This document shows, piece after piece, positions 6,220 to 29,992 of a stretch of DNA of 64,000 nucleotides. Where the stretch lies: positions 31,296 to 95,295 of the forward strand of contig PCWQ01000007.1 of assembly GCA_002787405.1 (NCBI GenBank). The letters run 5' to 3'. Made by a program: the position numbers and the translations under genes. Position 1 is the first letter of the stretch; each line of letters starts with the position of its first letter. Under the pieces are notes generated by a model. The model saw only the letters and a list, made by a program, of their open reading frames with translations. It ran no database searches and was not told the origin of the DNA. The DNA comes from Candidatus Komeilibacteria bacterium CG11_big_fil_rev_8_21_14_0_20_36_20 (lineage in GTDB: Bacteria > Patescibacteriota > Patescibacteriia > UBA1558 > GWA2-36-10).

Positions 6220-6232
6220 AACTTTTAACCCT

Positions 6233-7216: not shown

Positions 7217-7291
7217 TGTTTCAAAATTTAAGGCATAAGAGTTATTTTAATTGCAAATAAGCTTATAACTCCCAATAATTGGCCTATATAA

Positions 7292-8047: not shown

Positions 8048-8093
8048 TAATGTCTTTTGCTATATTTTCACTTAATTAATCAACCTATGATTA

Positions 8094-9407
8094 TTAAGAC
8101 AATCTCTCGAAACTAGAATGCACCACTGGCCCTTCTAATAAATCATAAAGTTTATGTGATACAACCGCTTGCTCTAATAAATTACAAACCTTTTCTGCTG
8201 CCTTCACATATAATTTGGCATAATCTTCTGTGAGGCTATAACTAACATATATAGTAGCCGAAGCCAAAACGCCTCTTTTAAGCATTTCTTGAGTAAATAA
8301 GGTACGAATAGCTTGACTATCTTTACCATAATCAAAAAAAAGATGAATCAATGGCGGTAATCCACTAATCTTAAGTTTCAAACCGCTATTTTCAGCTGAT
8401 GTCTTTAATCCTTTTATTATTAAGCGTCCAATTTTATCAAGCTGTTTAGGGACATCTTTGTCTATCATCTTCTTAATGGTCGTTATAGCCGCCATTGGGC
8501 CAACCCTCTCTGTCCAATAAGAACTGCTAATAAATGAAGTTTGAGCCGCTTGCATAACATTCCTATTGCCAATAATAGCCGCCATTGGGAAACCATTGCT
8601 CATTCCCTTAGCAAAAACAGCTATGTCAGGATTTACGTCGTATTTTAGATGAGCACCCCCAACATTAAGACGCCAAGCAATGGTTACTTCATCAAAAATG
8701 AGAACCGCTCCAATTTTATCAGCCAGATTTCTTATTTTTTTTAAAAAATCATCCTCTGGCTCATCATTCCTTAAAGGCTCCATAACAATTGCGCCAATAT
8801 CATTGTTTTTTAAAACAATATCCTCTAACTCCTTTATTTTATTATAGTGAAAAGGGATCGCTGTGCCAGCCAGCCCTCTTGGCACGCCCCTTGGCTCTAA
8901 TCCTGCTAATAAATGCCCATCCAGATGTTTATCGTTAAATAAATTAGCAGCTAAATACCAATCATGCCAACCATGATAGCCACAAAAAGCAATCTTATCT
9001 TTCCCTGAATATGCCCGAGCGATTCTGACAGCTACTGCCATTGCTTCTCCGCCACCTCTGGTATATCTAACCATCTCGGCCCAAGGATGCAATTTACATA
9101 GCAACTTCGCCAATTCTACATCTTCAGGAGAATTGAGTGTACAGATAGAACCTGATCTAATTACTTTTTCTACTGCTTCATTGACATCTGGATCGGCATA
9201 ACCCAATATACAAGCACCGACGCTAGCATAAGTATCAATATATTCATTGCCATCTAAATCCCAAACTTTAACGCCTTCCGCTTTTTTAAAATAAGAAGGC
9301 CAATGTTCTGGCAAAAACATCTCTGAACGTTTTGATAGTAATTGTGTTCCACCTGGAATAATTTTCTTTGCTTCGTTCCATAATAGAACACCTTTTGTTG
9401 ACTTCAT
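8094..9407 (-). CDS. class III aminotransferase (glutamate-1-semialdehyde aminomutase-like)
   Basis: 437 aa. The N-terminus (IIPGGTQLLSKR...KAEGVKVWDLDGNEYIDTYASVGACILGY) matches HemL-type PLP-dependent enzymes. Confidence 0.8.
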   Translation of the reverse strand: MKSTKGVLLWNEAKKIIPGGTQLLSKRSEMFLPEHWPSYFKKAEGVKVWDLDGNEYIDTYASVGACILGYADPDVNEAVEKVIRSGSICTLNSPEDVELAKLLCKLHPWAEMVRYTRGGGEAMAVAVRIARAYSGKDKIAFCGYHGWHDWYLAANLFNDKHLDGHLLAGLEPRGVPRGLAGTAIPFHYNKIKELEDIVLKNNDIGAIVMEPLRNDEPEDDFLKKIRNLADKIGAVLIFDEVTIAWRLNVGGAHLKYDVNPDIAVFAKGMSNGFPMAAIIGNRNVMQAAQTSFISSSYWTERVGPMAAITTIKKMIDKDVPKQLDKIGRLIIKGLKTSAENSGLKLKISGLPPLIHLFFDYGKDSQAIRTLFTQEMLKRGVLASATIYVSYSLTEDYAKLYVKAAEKVCNLLEQAVVSHKLYDLLEGPVVHSSFERLS

Positions 9408-10254
9408 AGCTGTTTGTTTTAAGTATAAAATAATTTTCTAAAAATAAAGCATCTAGCTCAGTATTGTTAAAAAGATTTAATGCCTGCTCAGGATTCTCCA
9501 CAATAGGTTCTCCCCTACCATTCATTGATGTATTCATAACAAGAGGGATCCCTGTAATTTTGTAAAATTCTTTTATTAAATTGTAATATGATTCATTAAC
9601 ATCTTTTTTTACAACTTGTGGTCGCGTTGAATTATCAACATGTAAAGCCGCCGGAATTTTATCTTGCATATTATTTTGTATATATCTAGCAATAATCATA
9701 AAATCGGCACAATTGGGAATATAGCCCTGGAGATATTTATGTTTATATTCATCTAAAATTGATACAGCAAGTGGCCGCCACTGTTCTCTATATTTTATTG
9801 TATTCATTCTTTCTTTGTTTTTCTTTTTTGTTGGGTTTGATAAGATACTTCTGTTCCCTAAAGCTCTTGCACCAGCTTCCATTTTGCCATTAAACCAACC
9901 AATAACTTTATCCTCAGCGATTAACTTTGCTGCTTGCTTATATGGTTCTTTAAGATATTCAAATCTTAGACCCTTAGATTTTAGCATTTTTTCTATATAA
10001 CTATTACTATATTTAGTGCCATAATATAGATGGCGCATCTCTTCAAAATCATTCCTCCCAGTTTTTTCAACATATTTCAACATTGCTGAACCAATCATAC
10101 TACCATTATCTCCAGCTAAAGGCTGGATAAAAATATCTTGAATCAACCCTGACTCTAAGATTTTACTATTCATAACGCAGTTCATCGCCACGCCACCAGC
10201 TAGACATAAATTATTACTTTTAAATTTCCTTTTCCCTATTTTTATTAGAATCAA
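9286..10254 (-). CDS. carbamoyltransferase (NodU/CmcH family), C-terminal part of a gene split by a frameshift
   Basis: Contains NLCLAGGVAMNCVMN, typical of O-carbamoyltransferases. Reading on in the +1 frame from the upstream ORF across the T8 run at 10323..10330 gives an uninterrupted sequence. Confidence 0.75.
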   Translation of the reverse strand: MILIKIGKRKFKSNNLCLAGGVAMNCVMNSKILESGLIQDIFIQPLAGDNGSMIGSAMLKYVEKTGRNDFEEMRHLYYGTKYSNSYIEKMLKSKGLRFEYLKEPYKQAAKLIAEDKVIGWFNGKMEAGARALGNRSILSNPTKKKNKERMNTIKYREQWRPLAVSILDEYKHKYLQGYIPNCADFMIIARYIQNNMQDKIPAALHVDNSTRPQVVKKDVNESYYNLIKEFYKITGIPLVMNTSMNGRGEPIVENPEQALNLFNNTELDALFLENYFILKTNSYEVNKRCSIMERSKENYSRWNTITIKTFRDVFARTLAFLF

Positions 10255-10268
10255 TAATACTTCTTCAA

Positions 10269-11090
10269 CTAAATCCTGGACCGCATAAGCAAGATCAACA
10301 TATTTCTTATCAAAATTTTCTCTTTTTTTTCTTCTAAAATATCAATTGCAAATGTAGCTTTAATATAATTGAATCTATCTTTCCAAGACGATGCTAATTT
10401 CTTGTGTCTTATTTGATAACCACTTCTTCTAAGTTTCATTATTTTTTTATCAAATAACTTTTTTATTTTTTTATCATAATTTCCATAAGCAGATAGTCCC
10501 ATAGTTTGACCTTCACCACTTATTGGTTTAAAACCTAGGAATCCTGTTATATCGGTATATATTTCTCCAATCGAATTAGGCCAATCAAATACTTTAATTT
10601 CTTTGAGCTTACCCTCCACTCCTTTAAAAATAACGGAAGATTCTTTTTCGCCAGCTCCATCTACTGTAATAACCAATGATTCATCAAACCCACTCAAATA
10701 GTAAGCTGATGCGGCGTGTGATAAGTGATGATTATAAAATGTAATTGGTGGCATTTTTAAATTACCAAATTTTAATTTAAGTTGATCATATATAATATCT
10801 TTTGCCTCTAATATCACCTCGCTATGTTTTAATCCTTTTTGTTTTACAAAAGGCCATTGTGTGGGTTCAAAAGGAATGGTGATATAATCTATATCAGATA
10901 AAGTTAAATTATTCATATTAAGTGTTATACTAATAGCATTAATAGGAAATTGTCCTTCTGCGTGCTTAACCCTAGTAAATCTTTCCTCTTCTAAAATTGA
11001 TATAATTTTGTTATCTTCCAATAAAATTACCGCCCCATCGTGAGTTCCAAAATAAGGTGGTATGCTTGGTTTAAAAGATAAAATTTTCAT
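10269..11090 (-). CDS. carbamoyltransferase (NodU/CmcH family), N-terminal part of a gene split by a frameshift
   Basis: The N-terminus reads MKILSFKPSIPPYFGTHDGAVILLEDNKIISILEEERFTRVKH, as in the carbamoyltransferase N-terminal domain. With 9286..10254 the total is about 595 aa, a normal size for the family. Confidence 0.75.
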   Translation of the reverse strand: MKILSFKPSIPPYFGTHDGAVILLEDNKIISILEEERFTRVKHAEGQFPINAISITLNMNNLTLSDIDYITIPFEPTQWPFVKQKGLKHSEVILEAKDIIYDQLKLKFGNLKMPPITFYNHHLSHAASAYYLSGFDESLVITVDGAGEKESSVIFKGVEGKLKEIKVFDWPNSIGEIYTDITGFLGFKPISGEGQTMGLSAYGNYDKKIKKLFDKKIMKLRRSGYQIRHKKLASSWKDRFNYIKATFAIDILEEKKEKILIRNMLILLMRSRI

Positions 11091-11106
11091 AATGTTATTT
11101 TAAATT

Positions 11107-11948
11107 ATTAAAATTTATTATATATTTTTTTCTTTCTGCAATAACCATAAAAGTATAGCTTTTTGTATATGTAATCTATTTTCAGATTGATTAAAAATAA
11201 TAGAATTATCGTGATTAATTGCATCACGAGAAATTTCATATCCTATTAACTTTACCATCAGTAAAAAATTCCATATTCATCCAAGTATCTGTATGTATAT
11301 AATTAACATCTTTTAATGCCTCTTGTAAATCTAGTGTTCTAATAACTAACCCAGTTGATTCAGCTTGTTTATTAAGCTTTGCATCAATGCTGCTTTTATC
11401 TGCTTTAGGGGAAACAATTATAAATTGAATGCCTAATTTTACACAGGCTAACATTAAAGTATTTGATACATTATTTTCAATCCCTAACCAAGCTACTCTT
11501 TTAATTTTATCTACCCCTTGGAATGCTCTGCCATAGTTAATATATCACTCAAGGCTTGGGAAGGATGATATTTTTCACTACATCCATCAATAACTGGAAT
11601 TTGATTATGCTTAGCAGCACTCAAGATATCATCTGTATTCACGGCACGAAACATTAAAATATCGCCAAAATTCATCATTGATTTTATTTCATCATTGAAA
11701 TCTGTTATAGAAAACTGAGTTGTTCGTATATCTATAAAAATAGCGTGACCACCTAGTTCGGTCATGGCTGTCTCATAAGACAATCGAGTTCTTGTAGATG
11801 TTTTTTGAAATAACATGAGTAAGGTTTGATTATGTAAATAATCTGGCAAATAATTTTTCTTTCTTTGCTTTTTTAATTTTTGTGCTAAAGTTAATATAGA
11901 TAAAATATCTTCCTTGCTTTGCTCTTTAAGAGAAATTAAATGTCTCAT
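11107..11948 (-). pseudogene. ornithine/aspartate carbamoyltransferase-like gene disrupted by at least two frameshifts
   Basis: STRTR and HPSQ motifs are found in ORF 11511..11948. The polypeptide continues in other frames (KIKRVAWLGIENNVSNT...VSP, then ISRDAINHDNSIIFNQSENRLHIQKAILLWLL). The HCLP active-site motif is replaced by EFFT. Confidence 0.65.
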
Positions 11949-11980
11949 AATCCTTTAAAGTTATTAAAATTGTTGATTGA

Positions 11981-12976
11981 TTATCGTGCCCCTTTTATAG
12001 CAATCACCACCATATGAGATGATAAACCATTATCTGCTAACCACTTCTGAAAAGAATCTGAGTATTTTTCCCATTCATCAATTAAGACCCGCTTGAAAAA
12101 TGCTTGTTTATCAAGTGAAATAACCCCCTCTCTTACTTTGTTTCTAACTAACTCAGCATCTAATTTACCAGGAGTTTTAATCTCCAAAACTTCAAAACCG
12201 TTGGTTTCTAATAATAAAGAAATGGATTCTGGATGAAAATAATTCAAATGATCTGGAGCAGTTGTATTATCAGAATGCTCTCCTAAAACTAATAAATCAA
12301 AACCTTTAATATTTGGGGTTGTTAAAAATAATAATCCACCGTCATTTAATTTATCTGATATGCTCTTAAGATACTCAATTGGATTAAACACATGCTCTAT
12401 GGACTCAATACTTGTCGCCACATTAACTTTATTAATATTCACATTTTCAATAAAACCCTCTACGACCTGCAAACCTTTCTGACGACAAGACTCTGCTGGA
12501 CTTGGGTCTGGCTCAACAGCAATTACTTGTTTAAATTTTCCTGTCTTTTTTATCTGCTCACAAAAAGTGCCACAACCAGCCCCAACATCCATGAATGATT
12601 CAGTAGGAATTTTATATTTTTCACAAAATTTAATAATTTCCTTCACCCGTGGCATAATAATATGCTTTATTCTAGCTGCCTCTGATTGAGGATAAACGTT
12701 TTCGTTCCAAAATTTTTCAGCTAAAGAAGTTTTATAATGTTCAAAGACTATTTGCTGCGTCGGTCGAGGATTTACAAAAACTGTTTCGCAAATATTACAT
12801 TGTACAAAAATAAAGCCGTCTCTTTTATAAAAAAAATTGTACTCTTTCTTGCCACAGGCAGGACAATTTATCTCTACAAATTGATCTTTCTTTGACAATA
12901 CCCTATCCTGATCTAATTTGTATAATCTCCTACCCTCGGCACGAAAATTATCCGCCCTGATATCATTTTCCTTCAT
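11981..12976 (-). CDS. SAM-dependent methyltransferase with an N-terminal Cys4 zinc ribbon (sugar C- or O-methyltransferase-like)
   Basis: A zinc-ribbon-like CPACG...CNIC is followed by the MTase motif DVGAGCGTFCEQI. 331 aa. Confidence 0.65.
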   Translation of the reverse strand: MKENDIRADNFRAEGRRLYKLDQDRVLSKKDQFVEINCPACGKKEYNFFYKRDGFIFVQCNICETVFVNPRPTQQIVFEHYKTSLAEKFWNENVYPQSEAARIKHIIMPRVKEIIKFCEKYKIPTESFMDVGAGCGTFCEQIKKTGKFKQVIAVEPDPSPAESCRQKGLQVVEGFIENVNINKVNVATSIESIEHVFNPIEYLKSISDKLNDGGLLFLTTPNIKGFDLLVLGEHSDNTTAPDHLNYFHPESISLLLETNGFEVLEIKTPGKLDAELVRNKVREGVISLDKQAFFKRVLIDEWEKYSDSFQKWLADNGLSSHMVVIAIKGAR

Positions 12977-13001
12977 TACTAATAAATTAATATTTATCGA
13001 G

Positions 13002-14105
13002 CTATTTGATTGGATCTTTCAATATCCACTCCCCTATTTTATTCTTTTTCCACATTGGTCCCCTAAATTTTTCAGCTACATTCCAGAATTTATCTAAAGT
13101 GATACCGATATAATCACAAAACTGTTTGATAAATTTCACGCCACATTTACCATCATATTCCCTAACGAGTTTGACGCCCTCTTCTCTGGTTATTCTACCA
13201 GCCCAGATATCAGCGCAAGCTTCATCGGTGGCAAAACCATAACCAAGTTTCATATGTTTTAACATCTGATTCATAATTCCCGTATCATCATCAAGGGCGT
13301 GATATTTTGTATAACGTCCCAACTCCAAAGCATCATCGGTTCTAATATGTAGACCTCTATTAATGGCAAACATTGCATGCTCATGTGGCGACCATCTCTT
13401 ATAATAGCCAAGATATATCATTTTGACTCCTGATTGTCTTATCTCCTCTTGAGATGGATAATGATAAGGGATTAGATCTTTAGCTGTCACACCATCACAA
13501 AGAAGATGGGATGAGTCACCCGAAAAACCTAAAGTATTTTGTTCATTAATTCTTGATGCATCACCACCATTTTTGTCTTCAGTGTCATCATCTAAAGTCG
13601 TAGTTTCAATATCAAAAATAACTAAGGGAACTTTATACATAATAGCTGCTCTCACCGGCGTTGCATATAAAGCATATTCCGAAGGCTTAACAGGGTTCCC
13701 CCAAGTATAAAAAGCCATTTTAGCCACTTTTTGACAGACCTTAGGATTAGGTCTAAACATAAAACAATCAAAGCCCATTTTTTGTAAATTATTGATATTA
13801 TGTCTGCCTATTTCAGTGATACCGTCAGGAACCATGTTGGCCAGCAGAACATTAAGACCAAGTACATCTCTGGCATAAAGCGCCATATAAGTACTGTCTT
13901 TGCCACCACTCACTCCAACCACACAATCATATTGAGCCCCTTTGTTTTTAGCTTCCTGAGCTATGTCTATAAGCTGTTTCCTCCTTCCCTCCCAGTCTAT
14001 CTTATCCAAGGATTCATAATAACGACAAAAGTTACAAACACCCCTGTCATCGAAATTTATACCTGGCCTTGTTTCAGGTACAACACATTTTGTACAATAC
14101 CTCAT
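13002..14105 (-). CDS. N-acetyl sugar amidotransferase (WbpG/PseA-like PP-loop ATP pyrophosphatase)
   Basis: An N-terminal Cys-rich region (MRYCTKCVVPETRPGINFDDRGVCNFC) and the PP-loop VVGVSGGKDSTYMALYA fit the WbpG/PseA family. Confidence 0.75.
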   Translation of the reverse strand: MRYCTKCVVPETRPGINFDDRGVCNFCRYYESLDKIDWEGRRKQLIDIAQEAKNKGAQYDCVVGVSGGKDSTYMALYARDVLGLNVLLANMVPDGITEIGRHNINNLQKMGFDCFMFRPNPKVCQKVAKMAFYTWGNPVKPSEYALYATPVRAAIMYKVPLVIFDIETTTLDDDTEDKNGGDASRINEQNTLGFSGDSSHLLCDGVTAKDLIPYHYPSQEEIRQSGVKMIYLGYYKRWSPHEHAMFAINRGLHIRTDDALELGRYTKYHALDDDTGIMNQMLKHMKLGYGFATDEACADIWAGRITREEGVKLVREYDGKCGVKFIKQFCDYIGITLDKFWNVAEKFRGPMWKKNKIGEWILKDPIK

Positions 14106-14130
14106 AATTTTATTATTAGTTTATTAATAA

Positions 14131-14985
14131 TTATCTTGATGTTAATTTTCTTTTTTTGAAAAATAAAGCTGTTTTTAACCAACTATAATATCTTAAATAT
14201 GTTATTAATATTAAAAATGGAAGAATGGCGATATCTTTAACAAAACCCGAACTTTTAAATGGTGTAATAAAATCGGTCATAAATGGATGACAATAAGATT
14301 TTAATTTTCTACTAATGCTCCAATTCTTAGCGTATTTCTTATAAAATAAACAGTCGCCACGACCATAACGAATCCAACGATCTATAATTGCTCCTATTGA
14401 AGCAAAACCCTTTTCATAACAAATAGCCTCAGAAATGGCAAATTTATGACCATCTTTAGCCATTCTAGTACAAAGATCTGTATCATCACTATTAGTCATA
14501 AAAGTATCATATCTATACTTTTTTAATACCTCTCTTAGAAAGAGAGTTGGCGTGCCAACTACATTCTTATAACCCGGCTTATATTTTTCTCTGTAAATAT
14601 TCTGAGCCCAACCAAGATAAGAATCTGTTTCACTTAACATTGTTATAGCAGAAACTATCGCACACTTATACTTCTCTAGATACTCTATCATCTTTATTAA
14701 AGATCCCTGGGGCATTATATTGTCAGCGCCAACAAAAACGATGTATTTACATTCGGCTGCATCTAATCCTATGTTTCGTGCATTGCCAAGCCCTTTTCGG
14801 CTATCATTAACAATTTTATCTACAAAAGGTCTGGCTATCTCTGTTGTTTTATCAGTTGAACCAGCGTCGACTAAAATTATTTCTTTAGGATTATTTTCTT
14901 TAACCGAGCTTAAGCATCCTTCTATTATCTCCTCACAATTATACGAACAAACAACCACCGATAGATCTAATAATTCATCTTCCAT
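14131..14985 (-). CDS. family 2 glycosyltransferase
   Basis: A GT-A signature reads LSVVVCSYNCEEII...ILVDAGSTDKT. 284 aa. Confidence 0.75.
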   Translation of the reverse strand: MEDELLDLSVVVCSYNCEEIIEGCLSSVKENNPKEIILVDAGSTDKTTEIARPFVDKIVNDSRKGLGNARNIGLDAAECKYIVFVGADNIMPQGSLIKMIEYLEKYKCAIVSAITMLSETDSYLGWAQNIYREKYKPGYKNVVGTPTLFLREVLKKYRYDTFMTNSDDTDLCTRMAKDGHKFAISEAICYEKGFASIGAIIDRWIRYGRGDCLFYKKYAKNWSISRKLKSYCHPFMTDFITPFKSSGFVKDIAILPFLILITYLRYYSWLKTALFFKKRKLTSR

Positions 14986-14986
14986 A

Positions 14987-16417
14987 TTATCTTTTCATGA
15001 CTAATTTTAAATAATGCATAATATAAATAAAGCTATCTTTAGTGTTTTTCACTTCATATTTTAAATTCCTTCTAATAGATGGCACGTCTTTGATTATTAA
15101 AAAAATTCTATTTGGCGGCAATTTAATCAATAAATTTACTAGCCATTTCAAATTCGGGAAACGAATTAAAAGATAACATAATTTATCTAAATTTATTAAT
15201 TGTCTTATATTATCCTGTTTTATAAGCGAATTATTGCTATCGGCGGTTGAACCAGCATTTTTGTAGGTAATTATATCTTTAAGATAATTATTATCAAGGC
15301 AATAATTCCCTATCTGAGTTTTAGGATAAGGTACCAAGACATTAGAGTTAATATCATCTAAATCAAGCTGCCTACATAAATTTATAGTCTCATAAGCATT
15401 ATCCATAGTTTCTCCTGGCCAGCCAAATATAATATCTGCGCCTATTCTAATTTGATATTTTTTTAACAGTTGACAAGCTGCTATTATTTGCTTATTGCTC
15501 ATGTTACGATTTAATAGCTCTTTTCTTAAAGTTTCATTGCCAGTTTGGATACCAATAACAAGCTTATCGCAACCAGCTTTTTTTAAAAGAGCAATATATT
15601 CTTCACTAATATCTTCAACTCTGGCATAAATTATAAATCCTGGCAATTTTTTTTCTATGTACAATTTCAAAAACTCTCTTACTTGTTCTAATTTTACATT
15701 AAAAGTTGCATCTTGAAACCTAGCCCATTTCAAACCATATTTATCTTTAACATATAATAGCTCCGCTATGAGCTTTTGAGGCGAATATAAGCGAAAATGA
15801 GTCCCGCCTCCATCCCTATAAAATTGATTTATCCAATTAGTATAGCAATAGGAACATCGAAAAGGGCAACCTCGTGATAAAATGAACGGTTTTGTCTCTA
15901 ACTTTCTTAATTTCTCATATTTCTTAAAATAAATATCTCTATCAAAAGAAGGTAAATGTTCTATATTATTAACATATGCTATGGCTGTATTTTTTTCCAC
16001 TTGTCCATTTTTCTTAAACCAAATTCCTGGAATATTGAAAAAATTTTCTTTCTTGTCTAGTCGATTTAAAATTTCTAGACAAGCTAACTCGCCGTCACCC
16101 ACACACATTAAATCTATACAATCCTCATTAACTATTTCCGGAAAAACTAAAGTAAATGCCCCGCCAATTAAAGTTAAAATATCTTTATTTATCTTCTTTA
16201 TCTCTCTCAAAATTGCAAGAACATCTTCCTGCTCTCCGATACATAAACTACAAGCAACTATATCGGGCTTAAAATTCATTACTGATTCGTAAAAACTATC
16301 TTCTTCCTCTAAACAAAAAACATCAACTACATGACCATGCTCCTTCAAAACTGAAGATATGGCCATGACGCCTAAATTTTCTAACAAGATATGCTGAAGA
16401 AAAGCAATTCTGGCCAT
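14987..16417 (-). CDS. cobalamin-binding radical SAM enzyme (class B radical SAM)
   Basis: An N-terminal B12-binding-like domain precedes the radical SAM motif CPFRCSYCY. The start codon overlaps the stop of the upstream paralog. Confidence 0.8.
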   Translation of the reverse strand: MARIAFLQHILLENLGVMAISSVLKEHGHVVDVFCLEEEDSFYESVMNFKPDIVACSLCIGEQEDVLAILREIKKINKDILTLIGGAFTLVFPEIVNEDCIDLMCVGDGELACLEILNRLDKKENFFNIPGIWFKKNGQVEKNTAIAYVNNIEHLPSFDRDIYFKKYEKLRKLETKPFILSRGCPFRCSYCYTNWINQFYRDGGGTHFRLYSPQKLIAELLYVKDKYGLKWARFQDATFNVKLEQVREFLKLYIEKKLPGFIIYARVEDISEEYIALLKKAGCDKLVIGIQTGNETLRKELLNRNMSNKQIIAACQLLKKYQIRIGADIIFGWPGETMDNAYETINLCRQLDLDDINSNVLVPYPKTQIGNYCLDNNYLKDIITYKNAGSTADSNNSLIKQDNIRQLINLDKLCYLLIRFPNLKWLVNLLIKLPPNRIFLIIKDVPSIRRNLKYEVKNTKDSFIYIMHYLKLVMKR

Positions 16418-18150
16418 TAAAGAGCCCCCCCTTCCAACAAATTCAATTCCTTGTTTATATCAATTTTAAAATGCTTAAAATAACTTCTAGAAGTCTCACT
16501 TGTCTTTAATATATCTTGAGCTTTATGCCAATTATCTTTAACCTTTAATAAATCCCCTTTGATTTCATACGCTTTGCCGAGAACATAATAAGCAATCGCA
16601 TGATCTGGTGCTAATTCAATCACTCCTTTAAAATCTCTAATTGCCTGATCTACTCTATCAGAATTTAAATTTCTGGAATTTATAAAATTGACCTCGAGAT
16701 TGGCTAAATAATTTTTTTCCAAAATATATTCTTTAGAAAAATTTGGCCAATCTACATTACTTGTAACCAAGGGATACCCATATCTTATACTATCAGCCAC
16801 AATATATCCTTTCTGGAGACACTCTTCAAATATTCTTGACCCAGGAATTGCTTGATAATTCCTAATTAAAGCCCAATCTAGATCTAAAGATCGAGCAAAC
16901 TCCAAAGTTTCTTCAACTTCTTTTTTAGTTTCAAAATGAAAACCCGAAATAAAAAAACCAATAATATAACCCTTGCCTAATTTTCTTATTCTTCTAACAA
17001 CATTTTTTGATATCTCTAAATTTAACACTTTGCCAATTTCTTTAAGTGTTTTCTGGCTGCCAGATTCAAAAGCAAGATTAAAGATAGCTATGCCACTATC
17101 ATACATCTTTTTTATTATTTCTTCATCTAGAAAATTTACACCTAAACCTCCTCCAACTCCCCAGCGAATATTCAAACCTCTTTTGATTATTTCATCCATA
17201 ATAGCCACAGCTTTTTTGGTGCTAACTGTAAAATTATCATCATTAAAAACTATTGCATTAACACCATATTCCTTAATAAGTAATTCTATCTCATCTACCA
17301 CATTTTTGGAATTACGATAACGTATTGATCTACCCCAAATGTGTTTTGCTGAACAAAAAGAACAAGAATATGGACAGCCTCGAGAAGCAGTCATAATGCC
17401 TATTTTAGCATTGTTACGACCTAAAACACGAAAGAGAAAATTTCTGCTTAAATTTCCATATTCTGAAAAATCATTGGGCATAATATAGTCATCCGGCGAT
17501 ATGTTAGTTCTGTCAGGAAAAGGCAACTCGTCTAAATTTTTGATTAAAAATTTATTTTCTTTAAATATAATATTTTTATCATCTCTATAAGCTATTCCAT
17601 GCAAATTTTCTACTCCTTTTTCTTTATTTAAAAAAAGAATTAAATCCATAAAACAAATCTCACCTTCTCCAATTATTGCATAATCTATATTATTATCTTT
17701 TAAAGCATCTGAATAAGAAATTGTAGGATAACTGCCGCCTATGACAGTGATTATGTCTGGTGATATTTTCTTTATAAGTGTACATGTTTGATGAACAATA
17801 TGTGATGTAGAATGAAACAAAGAACTCACTCCTATAATATCTGGGGAAACTTCTTCTATTTTATCTTTTAATAAACCCCAAGCTGCAGACATATCAACCT
17901 TCCCCTTAGAAATAAAATGCTTCATAGCCATTAAATTAGCATCAAAAATTTCAATCTCTACATCATTAATCTTACTTTGCAGATAAGAAGAAATATAACC
18001 AAGACCCAGTGGTGACTCTGCAAACTGACCACCAGATATTACCGTCTCGTAATTATAAGAATTGGTCTCTATAATAAATGGATTTATTAATAAAATTTTC
18101 TTGACTCTAGGCATAATTTTTATATAGTTTTTTTGATTTCCAGACAGCAT
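16417..18150 (-). CDS. cobalamin-binding radical SAM enzyme with a C-terminal TPR-like extension
   Basis: A B12-binding-like N-terminal domain precedes CPYSCSFCS. The C-terminal roughly 100 aa are TPR-like. Confidence 0.8.
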   Translation of the reverse strand: MLSGNQKNYIKIMPRVKKILLINPFIIETNSYNYETVISGGQFAESPLGLGYISSYLQSKINDVEIEIFDANLMAMKHFISKGKVDMSAAWGLLKDKIEEVSPDIIGVSSLFHSTSHIVHQTCTLIKKISPDIITVIGGSYPTISYSDALKDNNIDYAIIGEGEICFMDLILFLNKEKGVENLHGIAYRDDKNIIFKENKFLIKNLDELPFPDRTNISPDDYIMPNDFSEYGNLSRNFLFRVLGRNNAKIGIMTASRGCPYSCSFCSAKHIWGRSIRYRNSKNVVDEIELLIKEYGVNAIVFNDDNFTVSTKKAVAIMDEIIKRGLNIRWGVGGGLGVNFLDEEIIKKMYDSGIAIFNLAFESGSQKTLKEIGKVLNLEISKNVVRRIRKLGKGYIIGFFISGFHFETKKEVEETLEFARSLDLDWALIRNYQAIPGSRIFEECLQKGYIVADSIRYGYPLVTSNVDWPNFSKEYILEKNYLANLEVNFINSRNLNSDRVDQAIRDFKGVIELAPDHAIAYYVLGKAYEIKGDLLKVKDNWHKAQDILKTSETSRSYFKHFKIDINKELNLLEGGAL

Positions 18151-18914
18151 ACAGATAGTTGTTGGGGAATTGAATCAGATGATGTTCCATCATTCCATCC
18201 ATAATTATTATCATAAACAAAAATCTTTTTTTCTTCAATTTTAATATTAGGAAAATCTAACAATTTGTTTAAACGTTTATTGTCATATCGCAGCTCCAAA
18301 GCATACAACCCTAAACTATCTTTTTCAGTAATTATTTTTTCTCCTCCAAAAGGAACTGTTAATAATAGTTTGCCTCCTGGTTTTAAAACTCTAATCATTT
18401 CTTTCATTACCTTAAAATCTTCAGTCCATGTTTCAAGAGATGGAAAAAAATCAGGTAAATCTTTAGAACGATCAAATGAAGACCTCCCTCCCGCTAAATT
18501 AACCTTATCAAAGCCAATATGCTCAATGGTGGATATGCACATAATTTGGTTAAAAAAATTATCCGGATATGGTATATTGCGGGCATCAGCTTTTTGAAAT
18601 TTAATCTTTTCTTTCAACAAATCTGTCTCTACAAAATCTGCAAATCTTTTATAATTGAATGGAATAATATCTATAGAATAAAAATCTTCAGTGGAAAGTA
18701 TGAGTGATTCAAAAAAAACTTTAAAATATTTCCGATCAAAAAATGTTGTACTTAGATCTAATACTTTTTCATGTTTATCTTTTAAAACCCGTAAAATAAC
18801 CCAAGGAATTTCCACGCAACGCATTGATTTTTCCATTAACAAACTACTAAATCCCTGCTCACCGTGGCCAATATCATTTTTTTTATCTTGAAGGAATTTT
18901 TTTATTTCTTCCAT
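18120..18914 (-). CDS. class I SAM-dependent methyltransferase
   Basis: Methyltransf_11-like motifs are present (IPYPDNFFNQIMCISTIEHI and LKPGGKLLLTVPFG). Confidence 0.55.
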   Translation of the reverse strand: MEEIKKFLQDKKNDIGHGEQGFSSLLMEKSMRCVEIPWVILRVLKDKHEKVLDLSTTFFDRKYFKVFFESLILSTEDFYSIDIIPFNYKRFADFVETDLLKEKIKFQKADARNIPYPDNFFNQIMCISTIEHIGFDKVNLAGGRSSFDRSKDLPDFFPSLETWTEDFKVMKEMIRVLKPGGKLLLTVPFGGEKIITEKDSLGLYALELRYDNKRLNKLLDFPNIKIEEKKIFVYDNNYGWNDGTSSDSIPQQLSVCCLEIKKTI

Positions 18915-18915
18915 A

Positions 18916-21084
18916 TTAATGACTTAAATCAATGACTATTTTATTTCTAAATAAAGAATCTGATGAACTCAATAATTTTTCCTCTTTATTAGCTATAACA
19001 ATTATCTCTGAAAATTTGACAAGCTCTTTCAAGTTATCCGTCAATAATGAAGATATATGTGGAATATGATTTATAATATAGTTTTTATTAGCTCCAAATA
19101 TTCTTGCCATATAAATATTTTTATCAAATATTGACACTTCAATCCCTTTGCCTATTAAATGCTCTACTATATCTATCATGGGGCTGTTTCTTAAATCATC
19201 TGTATTTTCTTTAAACGATAAACCAATTATCCCAATTTTCTTTTTATTAAAAGATAAAATAGTCTTTAAAATATTCTTTATATGCATGTTGTTGCTATTT
19301 AAAATATTAAATATCACCGGCAATTCTAAATCTCTCTTTTTAGCTCTGTTAACAAAAGCATTCAAATCTTTAGGAAGACATGAACCACCAAAGGGTTTGC
19401 CTGGCTTTAAATAATACGGTGATAAATTTAATTTTCTATCTTTGCAAAATATCTCCATAACTTTATGAGAATTAACACCAGCTGACTTACAGAATGTATC
19501 AATTTCATTAGCAAATGAAACCTTAAGAGCATGAAAAACATTATCAACATATTTAACAGTCTCTGCTGTTTTAATGTCAGTAACCATTTTCTCGCCAGAA
19601 ACATTATTATACAATAAATCCATCAAAAATTTGCCATCCTTTTCATCTTCTGCTCCAATAATTATTTTAGGGGGATTATAAAAATCAAAAATAGCTGAAC
19701 CCTCTCTTAAAAACTCCGGATTATGACATAATTTAATATTCTTGAATACTTTTTCTCCACATATTTTTAATAACATTGGCTTAATTATTGAATCAATTGT
19801 CCCTGGTAAAATAGTACTCCTAATTATAATAGTATGTTCCGAATTCTTTACCAATAAAGCTTTTGCTATTGTCGTAATAGCTTTTTCAATACTTGTATAA
19901 TCAATGCTGCCATTAGCTAAAGATGGCGTACCCACGCAAATCACGCTAATAGCCGTATTGATTATTGCAAAATCAACATCATCGGTGGCTTTTAATCTTC
20001 CGCACTCGACAGCGCTTTTTATTAAAGGACCTAATTCTGTTTCTATTAATGGGGCAACTCCTTGATTAATGGCTCCGATTTTAATAGGATTAACATCAAC
20101 ACCGATAATTTCAAAATTATTCTTTGCTAAACAGGCAGCGGAAACACAACCAACGTAGCCTAAACCGAAAATGCTGATTTTATTTATTTGATCTACGGAG
20201 GGCAAGCTTATTTTATCAACCGGCTCGCTTACCTTGTGTACACTAGAGAAATCCTGATGCTGCATCAAACTTCTAATTGCTAATTGCTCCTCTTCTTTCA
20301 AGGATTTAAAATAACCATCATCTCTTTTTATGTCACTATTGATTTCTAGCAACTCCGGATAATCTTTTAATAAATTAAGTATATCTTTCATGAAAAAAAT
20401 ATTTCTATCTTTGTATAAATTCTTATACACTTCTCTGACAAATTTTAAATCGCGTTCTTCATCAACTGTCCAACGCATTTGAGAATAATCCTGATCACAA
20501 TCATCTCCCTGAAAAGTATTAATTTTAAAGATTTGAGAATTATTCCAAATATAAGGCGTCACATGTTCTCTCTCGGATTTTAACTTTGCTTCTTTCCATG
20601 CTTTTTCTAAAGAACTAAAATTAAATACTTCCGTGTCTAAACCATCAGGATATGCTGAATCCATTGATTTATTAGTATGAGCTGTGCTAACATAATCAAA
20701 ATTATTTTTTAAGAAATATTCTATTGTTTTATCTATGATATTTGGATCTATCAAAGGACAGTCGCCTGTGATCCTTACAATGATATCAGTTTTATATTTC
20801 TTTGCTGCTTGATAATATCTATCTAAAACATCTGATTCGCTTCCCGTATAAACATCAATGCCTATTTGAGACGCGACTTCAACTAACTTCTGATCTATCA
20901 GCTTGTCACTAGTGGCTAATATTACTTTATCAATTTTACTAGTGCTTTTGACCCTATTTACTACATGCCAAATCATTGGTTTGCCAGCAATATCAGCTAT
21001 TACTTTATTAGGCAACCTTTCCGCACTCATCCTAGCTTGAATAATTGCTACTATCATAATATTTGTGGGGCTAGACCATAACAA
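18916..21084 (-). CDS. bifunctional fusion of an N-terminal PseF/SpsF-like acylneuraminate cytidylyltransferase and a C-terminal UDP-sugar 6-dehydrogenase
   Basis: The N-terminus (IIQARMSAERLPNKV) is characteristic of the CTP_transf_3 family. The C-terminal half carries the NAD-binding motif GLGYVGCVSAACLA and the catalytic-Cys motif FGGSCLPKD of the UDP-glucose/GDP-mannose dehydrogenase family. Confidence 0.75.
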   Translation of the reverse strand: MLWSSPTNIMIVAIIQARMSAERLPNKVIADIAGKPMIWHVVNRVKSTSKIDKVILATSDKLIDQKLVEVASQIGIDVYTGSESDVLDRYYQAAKKYKTDIIVRITGDCPLIDPNIIDKTIEYFLKNNFDYVSTAHTNKSMDSAYPDGLDTEVFNFSSLEKAWKEAKLKSEREHVTPYIWNNSQIFKINTFQGDDCDQDYSQMRWTVDEERDLKFVREVYKNLYKDRNIFFMKDILNLLKDYPELLEINSDIKRDDGYFKSLKEEEQLAIRSLMQHQDFSSVHKVSEPVDKISLPSVDQINKISIFGLGYVGCVSAACLAKNNFEIIGVDVNPIKIGAINQGVAPLIETELGPLIKSAVECGRLKATDDVDFAIINTAISVICVGTPSLANGSIDYTSIEKAITTIAKALLVKNSEHTIIIRSTILPGTIDSIIKPMLLKICGEKVFKNIKLCHNPEFLREGSAIFDFYNPPKIIIGAEDEKDGKFLMDLLYNNVSGEKMVTDIKTAETVKYVDNVFHALKVSFANEIDTFCKSAGVNSHKVMEIFCKDRKLNLSPYYLKPGKPFGGSCLPKDLNAFVNRAKKRDLELPVIFNILNSNNMHIKNILKTILSFNKKKIGIIGLSFKENTDDLRNSPMIDIVEHLIGKGIEVSIFDKNIYMARIFGANKNYIINHIPHISSLLTDNLKELVKFSEIIVIANKEEKLLSSSDSLFRNKIVIDLSH

Positions 21085-21710
21085 GATCTAATAACCAGAT
21101 GGCGATGGATATTAAATCCATTTTTATTAATTTTTTCTGGATCTACATAACGTCCTATATAAACCCTATCACCATTGTGGTCCTTGTCAGAACACCAAAT
21201 AAAATCGTGCGCCCATAAAATCTGACCCTTATTTAATAAATAATAAGAAAAGAAAGTAAAAGCTGCTAAAATGGCTGAAGGGAAACCTTCCTTCATTTTT
21301 AAATCATTGTGTATTGTTTCAGGACTTTTACCACGACTATCTTCTGTAACATTTTTTTTAATTAAATACCATTTAAAATCTAAAACTTGATCATTAGCGA
21401 ATTTCTCATTCAAATACCAGTCCTGACTATAAAAACAGGGCTCTGATTTATCAGGCTGCCAACCAAAAATTGATCGCAGTTTGTTGATTGTTAATTTTTG
21501 TCCATCTGAGCTTTCGGGCATTCCTAGAATCAAAATATAATCATGTTTAATATTAATTTGCTCTAGATAATCCACGCTAAAAGGAACTTTTGGTATTGAT
21601 GATCTAAAGTTAAACGTATTAGATATTTTAAACTCGGAACTTATCGTCTTAAGCTCTTCCGGCCCAATAAAATCCGAGCCCATTATTTTTTTTATTTGTT
21701 GAAAATCCAT
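21054..21710 (-). CDS. hypothetical protein
   Basis: A 218-aa ORF in operon context with no recognisable motif. Confidence 0.4.
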   Translation of the reverse strand: MDFQQIKKIMGSDFIGPEELKTISSEFKISNTFNFRSSIPKVPFSVDYLEQINIKHDYILILGMPESSDGQKLTINKLRSIFGWQPDKSEPCFYSQDWYLNEKFANDQVLDFKWYLIKKNVTEDSRGKSPETIHNDLKMKEGFPSAILAAFTFFSYYLLNKGQILWAHDFIWCSDKDHNGDRVYIGRYVDPEKINKNGFNIHRHLVIRSCYGLAPQIL

Positions 21711-21716
21711 ATTTAA

Positions 21717-22310
21717 CTACTTTTGTTTCTCTTTCCAACTTTGATAATCCACTGCTGCTCTAATACTAACCAGATGGCCCTTTTTTCTATATTGTTTTAT
21801 TTTTGCCAACTCCACCCCTAAAAGTTGCAAGCGAGTTAGATTAGAATAACTAGTTTGTTCAAACCAGGAAAGGTCGCGAGCAGGCGCATTAAATATTTGT
21901 ATTTTTAATCTTGCCTGCTTCATTGCTTGTAAAAATGTAAGAAATGCTCTATCTTGATGAAAATGTGAAGCAACCAAAATTATTTTTTTCCACTTTTTAT
22001 TCCTTACTATCTTCATCACCTCCACCCCCTGATCATAGGTGTTCTGAGAATTATCTTCTATAACAATTTTATTTTTTGGTACACCTGCTTTTAATAATTT
22101 TTTAGCTAATAGACCAGCAGGAATAGTAAACTGCGGTACACTAGTGCACCCGCCTGAGACAACAATATTTTTTGCTAAGCCATCTTGAAATATTTTTAAG
22201 GTCTGTTTGAATCGATTATAACCATCTCCTTCTAACCAAATAACAGCATCTGATTTTTTAACAATGTCATTACTAGTGATGGCTATTAATGCTACCTCGT
22301 TAAATTTCAT
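21717..22310 (-). CDS. hypothetical protein (possibly DUF218/YdcF-like)
   Basis: 197 aa. The IVVSGG stretch is reminiscent of DUF218; the similarity is weak. Confidence 0.35.
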   Translation of the reverse strand: MKFNEVALIAITSNDIVKKSDAVIWLEGDGYNRFKQTLKIFQDGLAKNIVVSGGCTSVPQFTIPAGLLAKKLLKAGVPKNKIVIEDNSQNTYDQGVEVMKIVRNKKWKKIILVASHFHQDRAFLTFLQAMKQARLKIQIFNAPARDLSWFEQTSYSNLTRLQLLGVELAKIKQYRKKGHLVSIRAAVDYQSWKEKQK

Positions 22311-22325
22311 AATTATTTTAATTAT

Positions 22326-23438
22326 CTAATTAAGATCTCCCCAATATATTGCTTCTCTGGCTTTAATATCATTCTTAGCTCTGCGTCCAACTATAGTATC
22401 CTTATGTTTTGGAAGAATACCTACCGCTGGTCTTAATTCAATAATATCATCATCTTTAATAACTTCGCCTTTATTAATGTCTTTCTTGGCGTGCAATGAA
22501 CGACGTTGAACAATTACCGTTTCTGCTTCTTCTTCAACCACATCTTTCACGGTACTGCCAAGGGCTTTCTCTAATAATCTTATTTGCTCAACCATTTTTT
22601 TGAATTTTTGTGCTTCCATTGAATGAGGATGATCTGGTCCATTGTCTTTATTGCTCAAAGTAAAATGTTTTTCAATCACCCTTGCTCCTAAGGCGACTGC
22701 TCCTAAAACCACTAAACTGCCAGGGGAATGATCAGAATAACCAGTCATAACATCAAAAGTGTTTTGATACGTTTTTAATACATTAATATTAGCACTCTCA
22801 ACTTTTGATGGATAATTAGTAATGCACTGCAAAAGCACTAAATCATTATTGCCTGTTGATTTGATAATTTTAACCGCCTCATCTATTTCAGCGAGGGTGC
22901 TATCTCCAGTTGACAGCATTATTGGTTTATTTTTCTTAGCAATGTATTTTAATATTTCATGCCAAGTGATATCTCCTGAACCAATCTTAAAAAAATCAAC
23001 TCCTAACTCATCCAAAAGATCTACAGCTGCAAAATCATAAGGAGCAGAAGTAAACAAGACACCTATTTGCTGACAATAATCAAAAAGTTCTCTATGCCAT
23101 TCTCTTGGAAATTCAGCTTCCTTAAAAACTTCATCAATAGGCTTATCCCATGTTCCATGCACTCCCTTTAACTTCATTTTGGAAAAACTTGGCCCAGAAA
23201 CAATCGTATCAGCCGAAAAAGTCTGAAACTTTACTACATCAGCACCAGATTTTTTAGCAGCCAAGGCTAACTTTTTAGCTTTTTCTAAACTACCATCAAA
23301 ATTTGCTCCAATATCAGCTATAATTAAGGTAGAGTGACCTTCACCAATAAATTTATGAGCAATGGGAATATTTTTAGAAAATTTACTCATACACTTTACT
23401 TTAATAATAATTTCTTTAAATCTTTTGCTGTCATCCAC
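22326..23438 (-). CDS. nonulosonic acid synthase (NeuB/PseI/LegI family, with C-terminal SAF domain)
   Basis: LIIADIGANFDGSLEKAKKLALAAKKSGADVVKFQTF is typical of NeuB-family aldolases. 370 aa. Confidence 0.85.
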   Translation of the reverse strand: MDDSKRFKEIIIKVKCMSKFSKNIPIAHKFIGEGHSTLIIADIGANFDGSLEKAKKLALAAKKSGADVVKFQTFSADTIVSGPSFSKMKLKGVHGTWDKPIDEVFKEAEFPREWHRELFDYCQQIGVLFTSAPYDFAAVDLLDELGVDFFKIGSGDITWHEILKYIAKKNKPIMLSTGDSTLAEIDEAVKIIKSTGNNDLVLLQCITNYPSKVESANINVLKTYQNTFDVMTGYSDHSPGSLVVLGAVALGARVIEKHFTLSNKDNGPDHPHSMEAQKFKKMVEQIRLLEKALGSTVKDVVEEEAETVIVQRRSLHAKKDINKGEVIKDDDIIELRPAVGILPKHKDTIVGRRAKNDIKAREAIYWGDLN

Positions 23439-24367
23439 TCTTTATTTGTGTCGCTAACAAAACCAATGTTAGACTCCATCTTCTTCCCCATATCTAAAAA
23501 CTTTTTAAAATGTTCTTCCTTATTATAAGACTCGGACAAAACAACAAAATATTTATCTAACTCTACTGTATGTCTGGTTTCTTCTTTAGTTACCAGTGTT
23601 TCGTGTAATTTTTCACCAGGCCTGATGCCAATGATTTCCCTAGGGACGTTAGGCGCTAGGGCGTTAACTAAATCAACTAGTTTCATACTCGGAATTTTTG
23701 GTATAAAAATTTCTCCTCCCTGCATATTCTCTAGAGTAAATAACACTAATCTAAAAGCTTGCTCTAAGGTTATCCAAAATCTAGTCATCCTTTCATCAGT
23801 TATATATACCTTTTCAAGACTTGATTTCTTCAAAAGATGTTCCACAATACTTCCCCGACTGCCTATAACGTTGCCGTATCTAACACAACTAAACTTAGTT
23901 TTATCAGTGGCGTAAGAATTACCACTGCTAAATAATTTTTCTGCACAAAGTTTGGTCGACCCGTATAAATTGACCGGCTGAGCAGCTTTATCAGTCGAAA
24001 TTAATACCACTCTCTTAACTTGCTGATCAATAGCGGCATCAATAACGTTCTGGCTGCCTAGAATATTCGTTTTTACTGCCTCAAATGGATTATATTCTAA
24101 TGTTGGAATTTGTTTTAAAGCCGCTGCATGAATAATAATATCAACCCCACGAAAAGCCCGTTGCAATCTCTGTAAATCTCGCACATCACCAAGAAAAAAT
24201 CTTAACCTATCATCAGATATTTCTTTTTTCATTTCTGACTGCTTTAATTCATCACGGCTGAAGACGATTAATTTCTTTAGTTGATAATTATCAAGTAAAA
24301 ATTTTGTAAAGCTTTTGCCAAAAGATCCGGTTCCACCGGTGACTAAAACGGTTTTATTGTCTAACAT
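23396..24367 (-). CDS. UDP-GlcNAc 4,6-dehydratase (PseB/CapD-like SDR)
   Basis: The N-terminus reads MLDNKTVLVTGGTGSFGKSF...IVFSRDELKQSEM, as in PseB/FlaA1. Confidence 0.85.
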   Translation of the reverse strand: MLDNKTVLVTGGTGSFGKSFTKFLLDNYQLKKLIVFSRDELKQSEMKKEISDDRLRFFLGDVRDLQRLQRAFRGVDIIIHAAALKQIPTLEYNPFEAVKTNILGSQNVIDAAIDQQVKRVVLISTDKAAQPVNLYGSTKLCAEKLFSSGNSYATDKTKFSCVRYGNVIGSRGSIVEHLLKKSSLEKVYITDERMTRFWITLEQAFRLVLFTLENMQGGEIFIPKIPSMKLVDLVNALAPNVPREIIGIRPGEKLHETLVTKEETRHTVELDKYFVVLSESYNKEEHFKKFLDMGKKMESNIGFVSDTNKEWMTAKDLKKLLLK

Positions 24368-24414
24368 AAATTTAAAATTATAATTTATTATTATTTTATT
24401 AAAATTTAAGATTA

Positions 24415-25836: not shown

Positions 25837-25841
25837 ACAAA

Positions 25842-27623: not shown

Positions 27624-27644
27624 TGATAATTATAAAATATTTGA

Positions 27645-29968: not shown

Positions 29969-29992
29969 AATCTTTTTATCTATTGTAACTCA

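Follow-up and report, generated by a model that had tools for sequence, protein, structure and literature searches.

Two cobalamin-type radical SAM subfamilies recur in nonulosonic-acid gene clusters: a tandem pair from a Komeilibacteria glycan locus

We analyzed 64 kb of DNA (hereafter the window) from Candidatus Komeilibacteria CG11, an origin that agrees with the assignment to the candidate phyla radiation (CPR) made in a preliminary description of the sequence. The subject is a pair of adjacent genes on the minus strand that encode class-B radical S-adenosylmethionine (SAM) proteins. The upstream protein has 565 amino acids (aa) from its probable start (577 aa as the longest open reading frame, ORF), and the downstream protein has 476 aa. 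We refer to these genes as the first pair, since two further genes of the same architecture form a second pair elsewhere in the window. Both first-pair subfamilies recur within pseudaminic-acid-type clusters of unrelated uncultured lineages, and this recurrent link is what is new here. With evenly divided confidence, we propose that the first pair tailors a nonulosonic sugar linked to cytidine monophosphate (CMP) or uridine diphosphate (UDP), most likely by methylation, and methylation is the weaker half of the proposal. Feature coordinates are collected in Table 1; annotation of the window covered its 50 ORFs of 150 aa or more.

A pseudaminic-type cluster was taken to comprise PseB, a NeuB/PseI synthase and a CMP-nonulosonate cytidylyltransferase, and all three were found in the window. 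The PseB model TIGR03589 was passed with 462 bits (cutoff 408). The synthase scored 289 bits with Pfam NeuB and fell just under the cutoffs of the NeuB and PseI equivalogs (345 vs. 400 and 322 vs. 340 bits, respectively). The cytidylyltransferase is fused to a nucleoside diphosphate (NDP)-sugar dehydrogenase; the two are separate genes in the related loci L001, L002 and L083, and their fusion here may point to a CMP-linked sugar as the substrate of the dehydrogenase. The dehydrogenase half is of the UDP-glucose/GDP-mannose type. The window also encodes a WbuX-type amidotransferase, a family that includes C. jejuni PseA and PtmG, which make acetamidino groups. The PseB, synthase, cytidylyltransferase and PseA-type amidotransferase genes are those of the Campylobacter and Helicobacter pseudaminic/legionaminic pathways (PseB, C, H, G, I and F). 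In contrast to those pathways, the window lacks a DegT-type PseC, PseH and PseG, as no DegT, GNAT, Hexapep or PseG-like match was found among the annotated ORFs, and the product is therefore probably a non-canonical nonulosonic acid. Beyond the textbook set, the window adds a class-III aminotransferase, a family 2 glycosyltransferase (GT2), the CMP-transferase/dehydrogenase fusion and the two B12-radical SAM enzymes.

The gene neighborhoods of relatives showed the same association. In L002 (79-90% identity), the gene order is that of the window module. L001, from Chloroflexota, carries NeuB, CMP-transferase, aminotransferase, GT2, dehydrogenase and methyltransferase genes followed by three B12-radical SAM genes, the third paralogue lying between the two of first-pair type. 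In L083, the pair is accompanied by CMP-transferase, methyltransferase, SPASM radical SAM, GFO_IDH, GT2 and HisH/HisF-like genes, and by WbuX, zinc-ribbon methyltransferase, aminotransferase and dehydrogenase genes. All three loci keep the order methyltransferase, 565-aa enzyme, 476-aa enzyme, with the methyltransferase (52-74% identity) directly upstream of the pair and with GT2, aminotransferase and CMP-transferase genes nearby. NeuB is near the pair in L001 and L002 and is not on the short L083 contig. In addition, a small GT2 gene adjoins the 476-aa family, or sits 1-5 genes from it, in every context seen.

More distant relatives gave a similar result. The 565-aa relatives at 39-44% identity (L085, L086 and L087) are surrounded by PseB-like, DegT and CTP_transf_3 genes, and L086 and L087 also carry NeuB. 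The 476-aa relatives at 37-48% identity (L089, L090 and L091) lie among PseB-like, NeuB and CTP_transf_3 genes with a small GT2 gene adjacent. When the window was counted with the other loci whose relatives share at least 37% identity, 10 of the 12 contexts carried a nonulosonic signature; the remaining two (L022 and L088) belong to NDP-sugar clusters of another kind, for a heptose or deoxyhexose type of sugar. The preliminary description had placed the pair in a glycan operon. This placement holds, and the recurring nonulosonic contexts sharpen the sugar locus, for the first pair, to a nonulosonic-acid module. As a separate observation, a SPASM-type radical SAM protein of ~320-350 aa recurs in nonulosonic or family 4 glycosyltransferase (GT4) clusters elsewhere and is absent from the window.

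We next describe the proteins themselves. An N-terminal B12-binding-like domain had been assigned to each of the two adjacent ORFs, and Pfam, sequence motifs and AlphaFold models agree with that assignment. The 577-aa form scored 61.6 bits with PF02310 (B12-binding; gathering cutoff 32.1 bits) and 70.1 bits with PF04055 (Radical_SAM; 29.5 bits), and the 476-aa protein scored 47.2 and 89.6 bits; E-values of 1e-12 to 1e-25 exclude a chance match. The CxxxCxxC motif is invariant among the homologues of each protein (for the 577-aa protein, its three cysteines in 65 homologues). The 577-aa protein has six cysteines in total, so no auxiliary cluster is expected. Furthermore, N-terminal PD, GG and D...GEGE positions show little or no variation among 65 homologues per family, corresponding to P51, G85-G86, D102 and G107/G109/E110 in the 476-aa protein. 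AlphaFold2 models built from 65-sequence alignments reached a mean pLDDT of 93.9 (577-aa) and 94.7 (476-aa) and a pTM of 0.92. When the models were compared with the PDB by Foldseek, both gave full-length matches to TsrM, MgmA, CysS, OxsB, TokK and AprD4, followed by MiaB and RimO (E = 1e-16 to 1e-22, 430-680 alignment columns, TM ~0.6-0.7). Structure prediction, which had been named as a check on the B12-binding domains, places the fold in both proteins, and in the 577-aa protein the domain reaches further toward the N-terminus than the Pfam match.

Family profiles bore on the identity of the N-terminal domain. In both families, it aligned with the cobalamin-binding domains of OxsB, TokK and CysS, and also with that of MgmA (476-aa family) or TsrM (565-aa family); the alignment to the B12-free AprD4 covered the core alone. 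As judged from sequence and models, the first pair are intact class-B radical SAM enzymes, each with a cobalamin-type Rossmann domain, a TIM-barrel core and one CxxxCxxC site, and neither with an auxiliary cluster. The fold and the conserved N-terminal motifs suggest that they may bind cobalamin, and motifs this strongly conserved argue for a bound cofactor. AprD4 lacks cobalamin despite having the same fold, so the fold alone does not guarantee binding. We rejected the idea that the first pair are decayed or non-functional paralogues, since the cluster motifs are intact, the models are of high confidence and the orthologues are conserved.

The upstream enzyme ends in a helical tail that resembles tetratricopeptide repeats (TPR), as the preliminary description had noted. 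Pfam TPR_11 and TPR_16 scored 20 bits in the tail, under the gathering score. However, phmmer aligned residues 499-551 to consensus TPR proteins of the PDB (E = 3e-19), the family profile agreed, and the AlphaFold model showed six helices. The tail amounts to about 1.5-2 repeats, and thus contains the one 34-residue repeat that the TPR consensus calls for. Its residues are nearly invariant in 28 orthologues (at least 40% identity), which indicates a functional part of the 565-aa enzyme. A search with the tail alone retrieved thousands of TPR proteins, mainly ordinary multi-repeat ones, and allowed no count of the tailed subfamily.

The two genes are tightly joined. The start codon of the 476-aa gene overlaps the stop codon of the upstream gene by one base (TAATG), as had been reported, and a G-rich, Shine-Dalgarno-like run (GGAAGGGGGGG) lies 6-16 nt 5' of its ATG. 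The junction is also tight in relatives: the genes overlap by 8 nt in both L002 and L083, and 3 nt separate them in L089. Around the first pair, the window (33% G+C) is a long, one-directional and nearly gap-free gene array. The first-pair genes are predicted to be co-transcribed as one tightly packed operon and are probably co-translated. For the upstream gene, the probable start is the ATG at 18114, which gives 565 aa and lies 5 nt past the stop of the preceding methyltransferase gene; this start is favored by one public gene call and by the aligned orthologues, which begin at the same place. The NCBI record retains the 577-aa form, and both proteins are already in GenBank under generic or 'hypothetical' names.

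In the reaction that we propose, the target would be a nucleotide-activated nonulosonic sugar, a precursor of it, or one of its N-acyl groups. SAM would be reductively cleaved to give the 5'-deoxyadenosyl radical, which would take a hydrogen from an unactivated sugar carbon. Methylcobalamin would then supply the methyl group, and the cobalamin would be re-methylated by a second SAM. Two enzymes could mean two sites or two successive methylations, and the two may form a complex held together by the TPR tail. Methylation is favored because methyl transfer from methylcobalamin is the commonest class-B outcome and has carbohydrate precedents. C-methylation is catalyzed by GenK and GenD1 on aminoglycoside sugars and by Fom3 on a CMP-activated substrate. 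These enzymes share with the first pair the B12-binding and radical SAM architecture and a carbohydrate or nucleotide-activated setting, and the CMP-activated substrate of Fom3 has a parallel in the CMP-transferase that is a constant neighbor of the pair. In gentamicin biosynthesis, GenK works with a dehydrogenase, a class-III aminotransferase and an N-methyltransferase (GenK/GenQ/GenB1/GenL). By analogy only, the dehydrogenase, class-III aminotransferase and methyltransferases around the pair resemble this set. The window enzymes differ in having a TPR tail or a distinct helical C-terminus, and the pair lies in a nonulosonic surface-glycan cluster rather than an antibiotic cluster.

The structurally characterized enzymes are likewise only partial models. 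MgmA (9ccb), CysS (9n1b), TokK (7kdx), OxsB (5ul2-4) and TsrM (6wte) match the first pair over the full-length fold, cobalamin domain and core included, but share only 13-18% identity with it. They act on a protein glutamine, antibiotic scaffolds, a nucleotide and tryptophan, and none takes part in glycan synthesis. AprD4 (6fd2), the radical SAM 1,2-diol dehydratase of apramycin, shares the two-domain fold of the pair and has an aminosugar substrate; it differs in that the profile alignment covers only its core and that its model scores far under cutoff.

A number of observations weigh against methylation of a nonulosonic sugar. First, no characterized homologue emerged, as none of the four window B12-radical SAM proteins reached any curated NCBIfam cutoff. 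Their highest scores were 90-165 bits against cutoffs of 481-600, and the best were obtained with the Sden_1168 P-methylase (NF038361, 165 vs. 575 bits), BchE (TIGR02026, 157 vs. 481) and HpnJ (TIGR03471, 150 vs. 578) models. Second, in a single-sequence PDB search the top match of both first-pair proteins was AprD4 (E = 2.5e-10 and 2.9e-11), which has no cobalamin bound in its structure and is a dehydratase, not a methylase. Class-B enzymes also carry out ring contraction, cyclization and dehydration, and sequence cannot tell these apart. Third, we know of no natural nonulosonic acid with a C-methyl branch, and a full-text search, in which subscription journals were partly covered, returned no link of radical SAM/B12 enzymes to nonulosonic or pseudaminic acids or to polysaccharide. 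The same search, with the same coverage, returned no literature on these CPR/Patescibacteria radical SAM enzymes. Finally, the 50 annotated ORFs include no btu or cob gene, and an Rfam scan of the 64 kb gave no cobalamin riboswitch.

The remaining family comparisons placed the proteins apart from every characterized group. Across the four, scores were 70-98 bits for PF04055 and 47-66 bits for PF02310. The first-pair proteins are ~25% identical to each other and all four are 25-28% identical, which marks them as old paralogues, not recent duplicates; by sequence, the first-pair proteins are two separate, uncharacterized subfamilies. Other curated models scored as follows: PhpK P-methylase (TIGR04479), at best 114 bits vs. 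600; AprD4 (NF033070), 45-68 vs. 500; KedN5 family (NF033712), 48-71 vs. 700; RiPP (ribosomally synthesized and post-translationally modified peptide) C-methylase (TIGR03975), 67-91 vs. 282; and MgmA (TIGR04014), 73-114 vs. 360. The TsrM model scored lower than the Sden_1168, PhpK, BchE and HpnJ models. No GenK or Fom3 model was among the NCBIfam matches listed, and no solved GenK, GenD1 or Fom3 structure was among the hits. In the single-sequence PDB search, the nearest structures to the first pair were AprD4 and MgmA (E = 1e-8 to 1e-11). The four proteins thus appear roughly equally distant from all characterized class-B families.

Grouping with non-glycan lipid or cofactor families had been named as a finding that would tell against a glycan role; no such grouping was seen, and all such NCBIfam scores were far under cutoff. 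BchE, HpnJ, PhpK and Sden_1168 are the top-scoring curated models for the four proteins, but their scores are 3- to 6-fold under cutoff and the window lacks chlorophyll, hopanoid and phosphonate pathway genes. We rejected lipid or cofactor roles (BchE, HpnR, ladderane and BzaD), given scores below cutoff and no matching pathway genes. Phosphonate tailoring, suggested by the PhpK and Sden_1168 matches, a CDP-alcohol transferase and an HD protein, was rejected because the scores are far below cutoff; neither phosphoenolpyruvate mutase nor phosphonopyruvate decarboxylase was found in the window, which also counts against it.

The enzymes might act on the same nonulosonic or NDP-sugar substrate by chemistry other than methylation, such as dehydration or deoxygenation, ring contraction or rearrangement, or epimerization, with cobalamin absent or in a non-methyl role. 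We consider this unlikely, although it has a good deal in its favor. Besides leading the single-sequence PDB search for both proteins, AprD4 is among the top fold matches. HpnJ, whose proposed substrate is an aminosugar head group, ranks first among the NCBIfam matches of the 480-aa second-pair enzyme and second or third among those of the first pair; ring contraction or rearrangement has reportedly been proposed for HpnJ and shown for OxsB. Class-I methyltransferases already stand beside the pair, and the module comes with dehydrogenase or GFO_IDH-type reductase genes, just as AprD4 is paired with AprD3. However, the profile N-terminal domains align to cobalamin enzymes and not to the N-terminal domain of AprD4, the AprD4 and HpnJ models reach 48-150 bits vs. 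cutoffs of 500-578, and the strongly conserved N-terminal motifs again speak for a bound cofactor.

A target other than a sugar, that is, a glycoprotein acceptor (pilin, flagellin or S-layer protein), a peptide or a lipid carrier, with the TPR tail binding protein, is improbable in our estimate. TPR is a typical protein-protein interaction module, and the tail is conserved; sub-threshold NCBIfam matches include RiPP C-methyltransferases (rSAM_ocin_1 and ApyD) and lipid enzymes, and a 28%-identical Chromobacterium relative is encoded near flagellin genes. Against these points, no precursor-peptide-like or lipid-synthesis gene recurs with the pair, whose neighbors are nucleotide-sugar enzymes, and the 476-aa partner has no TPR tail. 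Lipid synthesis is generally lacking in CPR bacteria, which speaks against a lipid target. The Chromobacterium protein is a B12-binding and Radical_SAM protein of 554 aa from the cultured Chromobacterium sinusclupearum MWU13-2610 (L036 1255..11656), with two flagellin genes, fliD and a fliK-like gene located a few kb away. This species may offer a tractable organism for studying a flagellin-modification role of the 554-aa relative.

Four such enzymes in one sugar locus had been described as highly unusual, and this did not hold. We counted paralogues within ~10 kb on each side of a relative in 82 loci, of which 80 came from species-representative genomes and the others were L001 and L002. The genome scan gave only distant 565-aa relatives (at most 39% identity) and served the copy-number statistics, not the orthologue context. 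At least two B12-radical SAM paralogues were found in 27 of the 82 loci, at least three in 15 and at least four in nine. The largest array has seven paralogues in 13 kb (L026 1..13400, an unclassified bacterial bin; one locus of the 82). The loci came from Omnitrophota, Bathyarchaeia, DPANN archaea, Chloroflexota and others, and at least 34 of the 82 loci contained recognizable glycan genes. A Magasanikbacteria glycan locus, for instance, carries three B12-radical SAM genes and one SPASM radical SAM gene in 21 kb. Several B12-radical SAM enzymes per sugar locus are common in these lineages.

The second pair is a matter separate from the first. It lies where the preliminary description had put it, and each of its proteins has both domains and one CxxxCxxC motif. 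Its genes are 5 nt apart without overlap, 21 kb from the first pair and within a GT4 block. Relatives of the 480-aa enzyme at 68-77% identity were found in more than 120 CPR protein clusters, from Buchananbacteria, Magasanikbacteria, Portnoybacteria, Parcubacteria and other CPR groups. In the loci examined (L092-L097), the 480-aa orthologue was always flanked by GT4 genes, and the orthologues were 70-74% identical as against 26-66% for their GT4 neighbors. The enzyme looks like a core constituent of GT4-rich envelope-glycan loci throughout the CPR. The 478-aa gene was absent beside the 480-aa orthologue in the Magasanikbacteria and Buchananbacteria loci, so that the 'second pair' resolves into a core CPR enzyme and an accessory paralogue. 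It is very unlikely that the four enzymes are an exceptional, genome-specific set of GenK/GenD1/Fom3 type building one multiply C-methylated sugar, as the four B12-radical SAM and four methyltransferase genes in an operon-like array of ~35 kb might suggest, since the proteins are 25-28% identical members of different subfamilies, the pairs stand 21 kb apart in different modules (nonulosonic-acid module vs. GT4 block), many CPR genomes have the 480-aa enzyme on its own, multi-copy arrays are common, and the curated models give no membership in a sugar C-methylase family.

If the first pair uses cobalamin, the cofactor would need to be imported should the genome lack cobalamin synthesis, as most CPR bacteria do, and B12 scavenging by this bacterium is plausible. 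Sialic, pseudaminic and legionaminic acids, all of them nonulosonic acids, are found as decorations of flagella, pili, capsules and S-layers and shape host and phage recognition. To our knowledge, their known tailoring is all polar chemistry, namely N-acylation, amidination, and O- or N-methylation. Should tailoring of a nonulosonic sugar by the first pair prove correct, a radical B12-dependent step would be a new reaction type for these sugars. It would also give a substrate class to many proteins of uncultured bacteria and archaea annotated as 'B12-binding domain-containing radical SAM protein', and it would tie CPR surface-glycan synthesis to an imported vitamin, a testable dependency on partners. 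A bolder version, which we hold only tentatively, is that the two nonulosonic-dedicated B12-radical SAM subfamilies make an undescribed C-modified acid (e.g., C-methylated or chain-extended) and that the 480-aa subfamily ties a core CPR glycan to cobalamin from the community or host. Two useful leads can be tested, namely the nonulosonic link of the pair and the conservation of the 480-aa enzyme throughout the CPR. At present, the practical value lies in well-defined targets, namely the conserved gene pairs and a cultured Chromobacterium with a distant relative.

Table 1. Positions of the first pair, its parts and its neighbors (window coordinates unless a locus is named).
Feature	Position	Strand	Basis or remarks
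Upstream class-B radical SAM gene	16417..18150	-	longest ORF, 577 aa; NCBI PIR06975.1
Downstream class-B radical SAM gene	14987..16417	-	476 aa; NCBI PIR06974.1, 'hypothetical protein COV55_00935'
TAATG stop/start overlap of first-pair genes, one base shared	16413..16417	-	sequence
B12-binding Rossmann-like domain, 577-aa protein, residues 92-170	17641..17877	-	PF02310
CPYSCSFC, [4Fe-4S] CxxxCxxC motif, 577-aa protein, residues 259-266	17353..17376	-	ORF translation
Helical TPR-like C-terminal tail, 577-aa protein, residues 473-573	16432..16734	-	phmmer, AlphaFold, orthologue conservation
B12-binding domain, 476-aa protein, residues 13-116	16070..16381	-	PF02310
CPFRCSYC, [4Fe-4S] CxxxCxxC motif, 476-aa protein, residues 184-191	15845..15868	-	ORF translation
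Class-III (HemL/GntE-like) aminotransferase	8094..9407	-	profile matches; recurs in L001, L002, L083, L089, L090
Zinc-ribbon methyltransferase, N-terminal CxxC...CxxC	11981..12976	-	class-I methyltransferase; 59% identity in L083
WbuX-type N-acetyl sugar amidotransferase	13002..14105	-	NCBIfam TIGR03573, 318 bits vs. cutoff 203
GT2 glycosyltransferase, 284 aa, directly downstream of pair	14131..14985	-	Pfam
Class-I SAM methyltransferase, directly upstream of pair	18120..18914	-	Pfam Methyltransf_11
CMP-sugar cytidylyltransferase (CTP_transf_3) and NDP-sugar dehydrogenase fusion, 722 aa	18916..21084	-	CTP_transf_3 134 bits
Conserved 218-aa protein of no known family and DUF218 protein	21054..22310	-	with NeuB in L002, L089, L090 (55-74% identity)
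NeuB/PseI-family nonulosonic acid synthase and PseB (inverting UDP-GlcNAc 4,6-dehydratase)	22326..24367	-	Pfam, NCBIfam
Capsule_synth (KpsS/KpsC-like) transferase and MsbA/HepA-like ABC exporter	24415..27623	-	just upstream of the nonulosonic-acid module; same pair in L002, L090
Second-pair member, 478 aa, CPFNCAFC	39057..40493	-	PF02310 and PF04055, motif
Second-pair member, 480 aa, CPHRCTFC	40499..41941	-	PF02310 and PF04055, motif
SPASM-type radical SAM	L083 5188..6162; L090 11413..12366; L091 4361..5410; L092 15206..16192		

Among the other genes of the window, the three or four methyltransferases and the zinc-ribbon one of the preliminary description correspond to four class-I methyltransferases, at 7292, 11981 (zinc ribbon), 18120 and 43114. 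Throughout the window (1..64000), nearly all genes share one strand, and neighbors overlap or are separated by very short gaps; scans of the same interval gave neither a tRNA gene nor, at the gathering score, any Rfam family. Two ORFs in different frames (9286..11090, minus strand) encode the parts of a split NodU/CmcH-type carbamoyltransferase, and an ornithine/aspartate-carbamoyltransferase-like gene with an STRTR motif is in 145-aa and 72-aa pieces (11236..11948, minus strand). These broken carbamoylation genes (9286..11948) could be a decaying module or assembly errors, and the block is absent from L002.

Further along the glycan locus, a gene midway through the glycosyltransferase operon (35553..36875, minus strand) encodes an RtcB-like protein of the RNA ligase family, which scores well under the RtcB equivalog cutoffs; the gene adjoins CDP-alcohol phosphatidyltransferase and AsnB-type amidotransferase genes. 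An IS200-type Y1 transposase gene (46339..46908, minus strand) has a plus-strand GT4 gene on one side and a Wzy_C-domain gene on the other. Downstream of the locus, a 1267-aa ORF without a Pfam match (50191..53994, minus strand) could encode a surface glycan acceptor. Finally, two Wzy_C/O-antigen-ligase proteins, of 704 aa (2625..4739, minus strand) and 757 aa (47034..49307, minus strand), bracket the whole locus.

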